Shown here piece by piece: positions 6,001-9,000 of a stretch of DNA of 62,562 nucleotides. The position numbers were made by a program. The DNA is from a virus: UHGV virus genome UHGV-0106067; one strand, 5' to 3'. Every line of letters begins with the position of its first letter. Position 1 is the stretch's first letter.

Positions 6001-9000
6001 GGTCATACCAATAGCAATAATATCAGGGTAATTGGTGAACTGAAGAAGTGCGTTGGCATAATGGACTGCGCCATTCACCGCGTATCCATTAATATTTTTA
6101 AAATTCCATTCTTTTCTGGCATCTTTGTTCTCAATAATACCGTTGCTGCCAAGTCTGATAAGCCTGTCCTTGTAGCCTTTATACTCGATGAGAACGGGAT
6201 ACTGCTTGCCGTATTTGTCCTTAACAAGGAGTTTTACGTCGGGACGATTACCGCCTGCGCCGCCATTTTTCGAAAAATAAGCGTCCAGTGCGTTATCGAT
6301 CTCTCCGTTAAGTGATGCATTCTGCAACTTGTAATCAAGCCTGTAAGATTTAAGCCATGAGTTCGCCAGTTCGGTAATTTCCGGCTCAACAGATTTTACA
6401 GACTTTCTTGATTTACTGCTGGTCGCTGGTCGCTGGTCGCTGGTCGCTGGTCTGGCAGCATAAAATCATCCTTTTATGAAAATCAACGATTTTTGAGCAC
6501 TCGCACACAAAAAATTACCGCATTGGTTGCAACGACAACCTGCATTTTGCGGAGCATATGACAAATAAAGTACGGGTGCGTTGAGGATGCCAGACACATC
6601 AGAGGTGGCGGGAGATTACTCCCCTGCCTGGTCTCTTACTTCTCAGATTCGTAGTCTACGAAGACAGCGACCTCCGTCTGGCCGGTTCGGATTCGTACCT
6701 CGCAGAAGTCTTTCCTCGTTACCAGTGCTATCACTACGACGGTAATACAGATGACGATCAGGGCGATTAACATCGCCTTTTGCTGCTTCATAGCCTACTT
6801 CTCCTTGCCTTTCGGCACGTAAGAGGCTAACCTAAGTTTGTAAGTCATAGATTTGGCCTCAGATTAATGTTAAGCGTCCTGCAAGACGCGTAATGTTAAC
6901 TGGGGCTTTTCTCTGTCTGCCTTACGGCTGCATGCCCGAGGCAGACAGCCTCAAGCACCCGCAGCTATTCTACAGTAAAAACTCGCGCTTTCAATTTCCC
7001 GCACGTCCGGCAAACTGACTGGCCTGTGATCCTGATGGTTCACGCTCAACGTACCTGTCCATTTCCAGCTTTACTCCCTGCATGATCAACATCCCCTCAA
7101 TAACACCTTCTGCTTTTTGCAGTACCCGCCCGGCCCAGCAATCAGAGCGCCCATGCTTACGGCCCAGTGACATAAGCGTCATCCCGAACACATAATAATC
7201 ATACAGAAAATCATGCAAATCGCTGTTGTTGACGTTCAGTTGCGCCATGCAATTGCTGATAATCAGCGCATCGTCATCGGTACACTGAGGCCGTGATTTA
7301 ACCTTTGACGGGATCAGCCCCTTAAATCCGGCGGCAATGGGCGACCAGCTCACATCCTCATGATTATTGGCCACCCATGCGCCCCAGCGTTCAAGCACCT
7401 GCTGAATATCACGCATCAGAGTCTTTACCCTTATCCCATCCACGATGGACCATAAGGACACCGTTGACGACGGCGTGCCGTTTGCCTTCTTTATCGCCAA
7501 TATATTTTCTGACCGTGGCACGATTACAGTTCAGTATTCGGGCCACCTCGGTCTGATTTCCATATGCCTCAACAAGCATGTCAGGAATGATTTTTACGGT
7601 GAACGTCATGCGGCCTCACTTCTGCTGTTTCGCAGGCCTTTAAATTTCTGTTGATACTCTGCCTTGATCGCCTTGCACTCTTCGACAGTCCAGCGGTGGC
7701 GACTATGGTTTGATTCGATTTCGTCTACTGCTTCCTGCCCGATGCGGTTAATCAGTTCGACGCGATACGGAACGAGATTTCCGCTTTTGTATTGGTTACA
7801 CACCACGCATTGCTTATGGATATTGCGTTCATCAAATCTGAGCTGAGGTGCCGCAGCTGTTGTACGGTAATGGCCAGCATCCCACTGGGCTGAATCTAAC
7901 GTCCCGCATGAAACACACGGCAAATGACGGTCCCGCTCCCTGATATAAGCATTCACAGCCTGTTGTGCCTGCTTAATCCAGTAACTGCGGGGCTGTAAGT
8001 CCCTCCTGCGCGCTTTCAGCTTGTCTGCCTGCTCTTTTGCTGAAGTTATCGCCTTTTCTTTTCTGACCAGTTCCAGTGCGCACTGACCACAGCAAACTTT
8101 CTGATATGAGCGGAACGGCACAAACGAGGAGCCGCACACTTTGCATTTTTTGGGTTTACGTTGCTTCATCATCACCTCAGAAAAACGACAGCAGGCGGTT
8201 ATTCAGTTCAGGGCTGTTTGAGCGCCCAAACACATGCTTTAACGCGGCATTAATTATTGCGTTGTAGCAACGTTCAAACTCATCCTGATCCATATTCGCG
8301 TAACTCAGGCTTTTTGCCCGATATCTCACCTCGCCTCTTATGGTTGTGACCACATCATAGAACCCGGCAAGAATTGTCAGATTTTTACGAAACTCATCAA
8401 ACTGCGTCGCTTCATCAGAGAATTCGTATCCAGCATGTTCAGCGCACCAGTACTGAAAGCAGAAATTAAGAAAAGCGAACATCTTCCGGTGAAAAGATGG
8501 GTTACGGGTAAGTTTTGCTTCCAGTGTATACAGCTCACCGTTTTTAAATTTTGCCAGTCGGGGTAAATCGCGCTCATACGCCGGTACAAATACGCCATTA
8601 GCCGCCTTGATCATCTCTATTTCCATCAGGCAGCCTCCGCTTTGAATTTGCGCGTCAACACATGTTCACGGGCTTCACACCCCTGAATGAGCATGTCGTT
8701 AAAATCCGGCAAGTCAGGCCAGCGAATGCTGACCTTCTCAACGTCATTACGACTCATGAGATTCTTATGCCCACATTTAAAGGCAGCCGCCAGACCTGCG
8801 CCGTGCTCATCATTGTCTGCAAAGATAATCAGGTGATTAACGCCTGGTGGCGCAATAAACTTCTCCATAAAACCGGAGTTCATTGTTGACCACACATTGC
8901 AGCGGAAGATTTGACGGCATGAAAGCGCAGTTTCGATACCCTCGGCTATCCCCAGAGTGGACGACACCGGATACAGGCGTATTGCCACCGATTTGGCATG

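Follow-up and report, generated by a model that had tools for sequence, protein, structure and literature searches.

How is a restriction-modification (RM) enzyme to be translated when the one well-spaced start codon in front of it is held out of frame by a run of heptanucleotides? The question is raised by UHGV-0106067, a viral genome of 62,562 nucleotides (nt; this whole stretch is referred to here as the window), which is a circularly permuted lambdoid temperate phage and on whose minus strand five perfect copies of GACCAGC lie between a start codon and the gene for a fused nuclease-methyltransferase. We propose, with a probability that we put at roughly 0.78, that the tract is a phase-variation (contingency) switch that occupies the opening codons of the gene for the A subunit in a BcgI-like Type IIB enzyme, which lambdoid prophages carry as cargo.

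The arrangement of the tract and of the start codons can be read directly from the window. Tandem Repeats Finder reports the (GACCAGC)5 simple-sequence repeat (SSR) at 6418..6452 on the minus strand (period 7, 5.0 copies, 100% matches), within ...AAAAGGATGATTTTATGCTGCCA(GACCAGC)5AGTAAATCAAGAAAGTCTGTAAAATCTGTTGAGCCG..., and the chance expectation for such arrays in 62.5 kb is about 9e-13. The tract begins 6 nt past the likely authentic enzyme start, ATG2 (6459..6461, minus strand), which has a Shine-Dalgarno sequence (SD), AAGGA, 7 nt on its 5' side (6469..6473, minus strand); this SD is invariant in all loci that include the left flank, and ATG2 is invariant in all loci. A second start codon, ATG1 (6467..6469, minus strand, within GGATGATTTTATG), lies 8 nt 5' of ATG2 in another frame, with no spaced SD: AAGG abuts it directly, and it overlaps the TGA at 6468..6466 of the third frame. 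Because ATG1 is ATA in two alleles (L037 and L163), and so is not universally conserved, while ATG2 and its SD never vary, ATG2 is in our view the authentic start, and ATG1 a weak second start at best.

With five units, translation from ATG2 gives an abortive open reading frame (ORF) of 21 codons (6396..6461, minus strand; MLPDQRPATSDQRPAVNQESL*). The enzyme frame, in which the repeat encodes (DQRPATS)n, is free of stops from the TGA at 6468..6466 to a TTG at 6327; between the two there is no ATG, GTG or TTG, and the first in-frame ATG beyond the TTG is codon 108 counted from it, 3' of the nuclease motif. ATG2 and the TTG are 134 nt apart, and six or three units, or in general any n = 0 mod 3, would place ATG2 in the enzyme frame, while ATG1 joins that frame at n = 1 mod 3. 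The initial annotation, made from the sequence alone, had already described the perfect repeat, the ATG with its well-spaced SD, the stop after 21 codons, the frame that is open but lacks a start, the restoration of frame by six or three units, and a TTG without an SD whose next ATG it placed about 105 codons in; all of this stands, the arithmetic of the last step but one being borne out by real loci as well. Its conclusion that this copy is probably OFF is likewise upheld, in that n = 5 leaves neither ATG in the enzyme frame.

Whether the tract belongs to the gene or merely precedes it is decided by the segment between the repeat and the TTG (6328..6417, minus strand; SSKSRKSVKSVEPEITELANSWLKSYRLDYK), which has no start codon of its own. 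When the protein translated from the first post-tract codon was used as the query, repeat-free homologues of 675-686 aa were recovered at 72% identity and 98-100% query coverage (Neisseria, Providencia, Methylophilaceae and many metagenomic sequences). Their N-termini, which read MTQASKKSNKSIEPNIADLANGWLKSYKLDYRLEQ..., MARLQSVEPNIADLANGWLKSYNLDYKLEQ... and MAQSIEPNIADLANGWLKSHKLNYKLEQ... (pattern M..S[IV]EPNIADLANGWLKSY.LDY), align with the window residues SVEPEITELANSWLKSYRLDYK, so that 25-30 codons between the tract and the TTG are conserved; in a 20-sequence alignment N19, W21, L22, S24, L27 and Y29 are invariant, and the PADLOC family profile aligns from residue 10 of the post-tract protein. 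Since no start codon lies between the tract and this conserved segment, the conserved N-terminus needs an upstream start and translation of the tract. Databases already contain the corresponding products: P0006 and P0009 begin MLPDQRPATS (MLPDQRPATSDQRPATSDQRPATSKLRK...), P0010 runs from ATG1 (MILCCQTSDQRPATS...), and for strain 04-00955 even the Prokaryotic Genome Annotation Pipeline (PGAP) predicts a protein of 739 aa that includes the translated tract. The sequence comparison thus places the tract inside the coding region rather than in an untranslated leader: a perfect tandem repeat with a unit not divisible by 3, in an ORF past its start codon, as in slipped-strand contingency loci. The Neisseria gene opens ATG ACC CAA GCA AGC AAA AAA TCC, without a repeat, and the tract was therefore inserted or expanded in the enterobacterial lineage only.

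One could nevertheless envision that the enzyme is made from an internal start, whether the TTG at 6327 chosen by PGAP or another codon, regardless of tract length, and that the tract alters only an upstream leader or small ORF. PGAP does call a 653-aa TTG model in almost all genomes, or starts still further downstream, and the short upstream ORF ends 68 nt before the TTG, so that re-initiation would be possible in principle. However, the TTG is specific to this allele, being CTG or CTT in every other one, and has no SD; a start there would drop about 27 conserved N-terminal residues that are present in all homologues and in the family profile; and there is no other ATG, GTG or TTG from the tract to the TTG, the next ATG (codon 108) deleting the nuclease motif. 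Among the E. coli alleles, Salmonella and Neisseria, moreover, the 25 codons 5' of the TTG position differ by 8-11 synonymous as against 6-8 non-synonymous substitutions. We regard translation from an internal start as very unlikely.

A different product is suggested by the annotation of the other strand, where a 'YXWGXW repeat-containing protein' or 'hypothetical protein' crosses the tract. Such a coding sequence (CDS) is annotated, by PGAP and by the phage depositors, in every long-tract closed genome, and the repeat is open in all six frames; yet its product is nothing beyond the translated repeat, (AGRWSLV)n, its tail varies with n mod 3 (equivalent loci have its end at 540, 622 or 638), its start is a TTG without an SD, and the window has no such ORF of at least 40 aa. 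The opposite-strand CDS is almost certainly spurious, and the chance that it is the real gene is negligible. Examples are L002 3538..4251, L016 540..1106 and L039 622..1239, and the name 'EmrB/QacA transporter' also occurs. Annotation pipelines mis-call the A gene systematically, by a truncated TTG or internal start and by a spurious repeat protein on the opposite strand.

The proposal of a switch in the A gene predicts that tract length should differ between relatives, and the initial annotation had suggested comparing copy number across related loci, with an invariant number as the outcome that would speak against it. We compared window positions 4000..7000 with 5,426 complete E. coli genomes by megablast; the whole locus is rare, being present in 30 of them, and each of the 30 matched in two pieces, with a span in the record 180-660 bp above that of the query. 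PhiR12_3, a deposited phage from ECOR13, likewise gave a two-piece match. Every tract was measured in a closed set of 28 records (27 chromosomal loci and the PhiR12_3 record) and in 19 IMG/VR contigs found by flank-plus-repeat or bare-repeat patterns. A tract was present in every related locus recovered, and across more than 40 independent loci the number of units ranged from 3 to 120; the closed records hold 16-120 units (median 66; none below 16), and 23 of the 28 have a perfect tract; the flaws of the remaining five, single-base deletions and a poly-C run, look like long-read errors.

Length varies even where nothing else does. Nine genomes with 0 differences in 2,940 flanking positions have tracts of 218-582 nt; G8, G1/2 (about 93 units), G6/7 and SCU-104, whose flanks are identical to one another, have tracts of 456-694 nt; and three near-clonal bovine isolates from Okinawa carry 23, 22 and 19 units, with 0 flank differences in 2,600. 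In these alignments mutation falls within the tract, by orders of magnitude more than outside it, and proceeds in whole-unit steps, which is the signature of slipped-strand mispairing. Far from being invariant, then, the tract is hypervariable between close relatives with invariant flanks, which also makes it an extremely fast-evolving marker that separates otherwise identical isolates; it might be one of the loci (EH111-8, -11 or -14) of O111 typing by variable-number tandem repeats at multiple loci (MLVA). Exactly 83 units occur in four records (L019, L022, L026 and L039; their sources, which are unrelated, are an O111:H8 isolate from Nebraska, a Chilean faecal isolate, the German strain G6/7 and the ECOR13 phage PhiR12_3). 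We considered this recurrence and dropped it as meaningful, as about this many coincidences are expected when the values of 26 records are concentrated at 50-99; it is probably a coincidence, the alternative being a preferred or more stable length.

When the real loci are translated in silico, length alternates between a full-length and a truncated product as a contingency locus should. ATG2 reaches the full enzyme only at n = 0 mod 3, giving 693-966 aa (e.g., G8, 99 units and 917 aa; DETEC-S792, 54 and 812 aa; JNEC-KY173, 66 and 840 aa; strain 48, 120 and 966 aa), and at any other n it meets a stop 0-7 codons past the tract. At n = 1 mod 3 it is ATG1 whose frame continues without a stop into the enzyme, and at n = 2 mod 3, the class of the window, neither ATG is in frame. 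The initial annotation's candidate switch by reading frame is thus borne out on each point that could be compared: the tract is hypervariable and coding, the SD and ATG2 are kept, and the frame outcomes are as predicted.

These observations suggest the following mechanism. Translation would start at the SD-served ATG at 6461, read MLP and then (DQRPATS)n, and pass into the conserved nuclease N-terminus, while slipped-strand mispairing during replication would gain or lose 7-nt units and so cycle the gene through three frames. Copies with n = 0 mod 3 would produce the full-length enzyme and be ON; those with n = 2 mod 3, such as the window, would leave the enzyme frame without a start codon and be OFF; and those with n = 1 mod 3 would link the enzyme only to ATG1, with no spaced SD, and would probably be OFF or weak. 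Because nuclease and methyltransferase form one polypeptide, restriction and modification would go on and off together.

The frames found in nature bear on whether such a switch has been of any use. Among the 21 closed records with perfect tracts that were examined first, classes 0, 1 and 2 mod 3 number 4, 8 and 9 (chi-square p = 0.37); with two later Okinawa isolates (22 and 19 units, both 1 mod 3) the counts become 4, 10 and 9. One could accordingly regard the tract as a neutral hypermutable microsatellite, whose frame changes are a by-product without an adaptive role and whose RM genes are mostly dead weight: the frame classes do not depart from a random distribution, the majority of copies are out of frame, and the GACCAGC heptamer forms tracts in many unrelated genomes. 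On the other hand, the A and S frames are intact and identical across many strains even though most copies would be OFF. In 19 of the 28 closed records the annotated A product is one and the same protein of 653 aa (WP_001178557.1), even though most are out of frame, and this identity indicates that the ORF has been kept intact. Substitutions between alleles are biased to synonymous ones, the SD, ATG2 and tract have been retained in alleles of 83-93% identity and across genera, and neuO, an experimentally proven switch, also shows a uniform frame distribution. We consider a purely neutral origin unlikely.

Several points nonetheless weigh against a contingency switch. The random frame classes give no sign of selection for the ON state, and they fit a switch and neutral slippage equally. 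Those tracts that have 50-120 units (at most 840 bp, or 280 additional aa) far exceed the tracts of classical contingency loci, which likewise favours the neutral explanation. A sigma-70 consensus scan found no promoter between a terminator-like hairpin upstream of the tract and the ATG, and the gene may be transcribed chiefly from the late promoter once the prophage is induced, by way of Q-dependent antitermination; its biological role would then lie less in defence of the lysogen than in marking of progeny DNA. Slippage itself, its reversibility within a clone, and the phenotype (lysogen subpopulations or phage bursts with and without restriction and methylation) are what we infer from sequence comparison. 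Finally, the window's own n = 5 may be an assembly collapse.

This last point deserves separate treatment, because an assembly artefact fails as an explanation of the tract itself but is plausible for the specific count of five units, for which we would give it a substantial chance, if somewhat short of even. Five units are atypical, all 28 closed records having at least 16. Moreover, the tract is where 7 of the first 13 IMG/VR contigs, and several found later, come to an end (contigs that start or end within it are L004, L007-L012, L040, L164, L170, L175 and L177), as happens because short-read assemblers break at long perfect repeats, and the short pure-repeat values of 35, 63 and 133 nt, which occur in draft or viral contigs only, appear to lie just above the common de Bruijn k-mers of 33, 55/63 and 127. 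Against this, more than 40 assemblies of differing technologies share a tract between these flanks, and the short tracts could be genuine alleles that are just less prone to change. Unit counts taken from short-read assemblies, perhaps that of the window among them, are in any case unreliable, and the breaking or collapse of such assemblies at the tract is probably why the switch has gone unnoticed.

The enzyme to which the tract leads is encoded by two genes. The body of the A subunit, as called from the TTG, occupies 4366..6327 on the minus strand and combines a nuclease with an N6-adenine methyltransferase (N6_Mtase E = 4e-21); over its full length it matches the PADLOC model for a fused restriction enzyme-methyltransferase, REase_MTase_IIG (E = 3e-232). 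The PD..ExK residues D60, E78 and K80 lie at 6240..6178 and the NPPY motif at 4959..4948, and in the 20-sequence alignment the N-terminal 200 residues contain an invariant RPD60...E78-Y-K80, the methyltransferase motifs DFATGSAG and NPPY being invariant as well. The Pfam family VRR_NUC fell below its cutoff on A (21.5 as against 23.8 bits, E = 2.5e-4), and the nuclease assignment is accordingly a putative one that rests on the motif and the PADLOC profile, not on Pfam. The fused nuclease-methyltransferase of the initial annotation thus finds support in REase_MTase_IIG, N6_Mtase and the invariant motifs. The S subunit is a 364-aa ORF at 3212..4306 (minus strand) with two target-recognition domains (TRDs; Methylase_S in two stretches, E = 1e-19; PADLOC Specificity_II, E = 9e-21). 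No HsdR or translocase gene was found in the window, in the annotated relatives or beside the Neisseria homologue. PGAP names A a Type I HsdM, a candidate that we rejected, since TIGR00497 scores 36 against a cutoff of 242.75 bits, A has an extra N-terminal nuclease domain, and there is no hsdR at the locus. With a fused nuclease and gamma-class N6-adenine methyltransferase, a separate HsdS-like subunit and no translocase, A and S have, as far as their genes can tell, a BcgI/BsaXI-type (Type IIB) architecture.

Other evidence on the class of enzyme is in keeping with this. The A gene of phage PhiR12_3 is annotated 'BcgI alpha chain-like', and the second-best PADLOC model for A has 637 positions and the best model for S 341, which we take to be the lengths of BcgI A and B. 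A sequence search of the PDB with the enzyme found nothing. The AlphaFold model of A is poor (predicted local distance difference test, pLDDT, 57.6, from a shallow alignment at 72% identity or above), and its Foldseek matches (HsdM subunits, BsaXI and BpuSI) may be said to agree with the class but carry little weight. Genomes differ in how the S gene is annotated: some give an intact protein of 361 aa, others a pseudogene plus fragment (window 3212..4306; L001 5859..6971; L002 6362..7447). Decay of S into a pseudogene in many strains was rejected, as the DNA is identical between copies annotated as intact and as pseudogenes and that of the window differs by one single-nucleotide polymorphism from copies annotated as intact; the pseudogene calls reflect inconsistent annotation rather than decay of the gene.

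Textbooks use E. coli to illustrate phase variation through DNA inversion and Dam methylation, and repeat-driven contingency loci are seen as a hallmark of Haemophilus, Neisseria, Campylobacter and Helicobacter. A switch of this kind is unexpected for E. coli and Salmonella; natural strains in the predicted ON and OFF classes exist. If the proposal is correct, lambdoid prophages of enteropathogenic and Shiga toxin-producing E. coli (e.g., O111:H8), of commensal E. coli and of Salmonella would carry a stochastic RM switch, and members of a clonal lysogen population would differ from one another in phage resistance, DNA uptake and genome methylation.

The closest parallel is neuO, on prophage CUS-3 of E. 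coli K1, which has a 5' heptanucleotide repeat and is ON when n is divisible by 3; it carries 3-53 repeats among genomes, about 34% of genomes are ON, and the repeat is translated as a heptad extension, a longer extension being reported to raise activity (PMC13001214). The two loci share a species, a temperate-phage cargo gene, a coding 5' heptanucleotide of variable number that is translated as a heptapeptide, and a full-length product at n divisible by 3. Copy number ranges widely in both (3-53 in neuO, 3-120 here), and about one third of copies or fewer are ON. However, the unit is GACCAGC rather than the AAGACTC of neuO, and neither the unit nor the protein is homologous, so that the analogy is one of mechanism. 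In contrast to neuO, a capsule O-acetyltransferase gene, the present locus encodes an RM enzyme and has longer tracts, in a late operon downstream of Q; and for neuO switching and phenotype were demonstrated experimentally, whereas here they are predicted.

Switching of RM systems is itself well described: an SSR in the ORF of a methyltransferase subunit shifts the frame and stochastically switches methylation or restriction, as in Type III mod genes (Haemophilus, Neisseria and Helicobacter), Type I hsdM and hsdS, and the Type IIG gene Cj0031 of Campylobacter jejuni (PMC5909438, PMC7383803, PMC4889913). Where a phase-variable methyltransferase controls a regulon, one speaks of a phasevarion. 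The enzyme of the window resembles Cj0031 in having nuclease and methyltransferase in one polypeptide. The known SSR-controlled systems are chromosomal, belong to small-genome host-adapted pathogens and have mono- to pentanucleotide tracts usually of fewer than 40 units, in contrast to the present case, a two-subunit BcgI-like Type IIB system of E. coli and Salmonella prophages whose 7-nt unit reaches 120 copies. From its genes alone, this system shares with BcgI and BsaXI an A subunit with an N-terminal PD-(D/E)xK nuclease and a gamma-class N6-adenine methyltransferase (NPPY), along with a separate HsdS-like subunit with two TRDs. To our knowledge, neither BcgI nor BsaXI is phase-variable or phage-borne. 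In lic1 of H. influenzae, CAAT repeats are combined with alternative ATGs in different frames; the present locus similarly has two start codons in different frames 5' of the tract, and strong, weak and no expression are conceivable. Unlike in lic1, ATG1 here lacks a spaced SD and is ATA in some alleles, and because of this a three-level switch is only a possibility.

The literature has been silent on this locus so far as we searched it, a search that lay outside most subscription journals and REBASE: neither the GACCAGC repeat (as a 14-mer in all six registers) nor the peptide repeat was reported. Escherichia does not figure in the text of a Type I SSR survey (PMC7383803), and the locus is also absent from two recent reviews. 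The initial annotation had recognised no such switch on a lambdoid phage RM system, and this remains accurate to the extent that we found no publication on the locus; a heptanucleotide switch on an E. coli prophage, neuO, was already at hand. The mechanism is thus classical SSR phase variation and already known, and it is the locus for which no publication was found.

The unit of SD, ATG, tract and enzyme is found in at least four E. coli allele groups, at about 100, 97, 90-93 and 83-88% identity. Alleles with 83-93% identity still have the SD, ATG2 and the tract, and so does L038, which lies in a different prophage context with hokD. A Salmonella enterica contig begins inside the tract (ACCAGC|AAATTAAGAAAGGC). 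The protein cluster at 98% identity has 841 members, and its representative is named 'partial'. When species genomes were scanned for the bare repeat, the matches were mostly GC-rich, unrelated loci, and 130 of 136 were without the enzyme.

One of the other tracts lies at the start of a second DNA methyltransferase gene. Pectobacterium carotovorum DSM 30168 (NZ_FQWI01000003.1) has (GACCAGC)17 at 6525..6643 of locus L051, directly after the ATG TC of an unrelated gene. The ORF, 6520..7662, encodes an EcoRI-family adenine methyltransferase (PF13651, E = 1e-130) with MSTS(DQRPATS)n in frame; its flanks are dissimilar to the E. coli leader, its relatives are repeat-free and of about 337 aa, and NCBI starts the gene downstream (336 aa). 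Judging by these sequences, one switch-like leader heads two unrelated DNA methyltransferase genes in Enterobacterales. Looked for as the methylase common in Shiga toxin (Stx) phages, an EcoRI-family methylase with the tract had no match among E. coli phages. Elsewhere, the Planctomycetota metagenome-assembled genome (MAG) maxbin.317 (JALHRW01) has more than 15 contigs with GACCAGC tracts of at least 4 units (e.g., L043, L047, L055, L056, L060 and L062), and two other Planctomycetota MAGs and several Gemmatimonadota have multiple GACCAGC loci; no homologue of the enzyme was found beside the Planctomycetota and Gemmatimonadota tracts. A more speculative proposal, which we hold to be rather improbable, is that (GACCAGC)n/DQRPATS is a portable 5' switch leader acquired repeatedly by unrelated DNA-modification genes of Enterobacterales (the BcgI-like enzyme and the Pectobacterium EcoRI-family methyltransferase). 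On the prophage, it would have three states (strong from ATG2, weak from ATG1 and none in the third frame) and be expressed with the late operon; induced lysogens would release mixed methylated and unmethylated virions and differ from cell to cell in superinfection immunity, and the disordered extension of up to 280 aa would tune activity, as is reported for NeuO.

The surroundings of the cassette are those of a prophage. The window encodes an integrase, a CI-like repressor, NinG, Q, an endolysin, a terminase and a portal protein, and no tRNA genes were found in it. On the minus strand the order is Q, hok/mok, a hairpin with a U-run, the SD and ATG, the tract, A, S, a SASA-family esterase (nanS-p-like) and lysis genes across the window ends. 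The Q antiterminator gene is at 6991..7521 (minus strand; Phage_antitermQ E = 1e-47), and at its end, at 6967..6994 on the same strand, is a candidate PR'-like late promoter (TTGAAA-16-TAGAAT; 10/12 in a consensus scan), a role suggested by its position. A hok/mok-type toxin gene (6636..6791, minus strand; PHROG 251, MokW-like host killing, E = 2e-31) lies between Q and the RM cassette and is called Hok/Gef in all related genomes; in L030, L033, L034, L035 and L037 the hok/gef gene is annotated as frameshifted (locus ~310..466 or 1710..1866).

The terminator-like hairpin (6509..6552, minus strand) lies about 50 nt 5' of the start codon; minimum free energy folding places its stem at 6552..6518, and the sequence has a U-run at 6514..6509. 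Its outer stem and T-run also occur in the diverged allele L038. A strict terminator scan made no call for the hairpin on this strand, and the RNA fold of the spacer from hok to the ATG was no more stable than shuffled sequences (z = -0.81), only the local hairpin and U-run standing out.

Strain E2855 (L001) indicates where in the late operon the cassette sits. There, a methyltransferase remnant and then tRNA-Ile/Arg/Arg follow on the 3' side of S. Genes for tRNA-Ile/Arg/Arg are typical of Stx phages, and the remnant and the tRNA genes after S thus show that the cassette occupies the stx position of the late operon; if the switch operates as proposed, phage progeny might vary in methylation on account of this position. 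The remnant (L001 7273..7676), lying between the S gene and the esterase, is the C-terminal part of a site-specific DNA methyltransferase. The evidence suggests that the RM cassette displaced the methylase usual at that site in Stx-type phages. Upstream of Q, the E2855 prophage also has a DNA modification module of the Mu type, com/mom (L001 590..1481).

Two further tandem repeats are present in the phage, GATTTCATGATC in 5.4 copies at 60246..60310 (90% matches) and ATGACCATTGA in 3.5 copies at 48092..48129 (96%). The first overlaps a 272-aa ORF (59628..60446) just upstream of the terminase gene, and one of the two has an 11-nt unit, whose length, like that of GACCAGC, is not divisible by 3.

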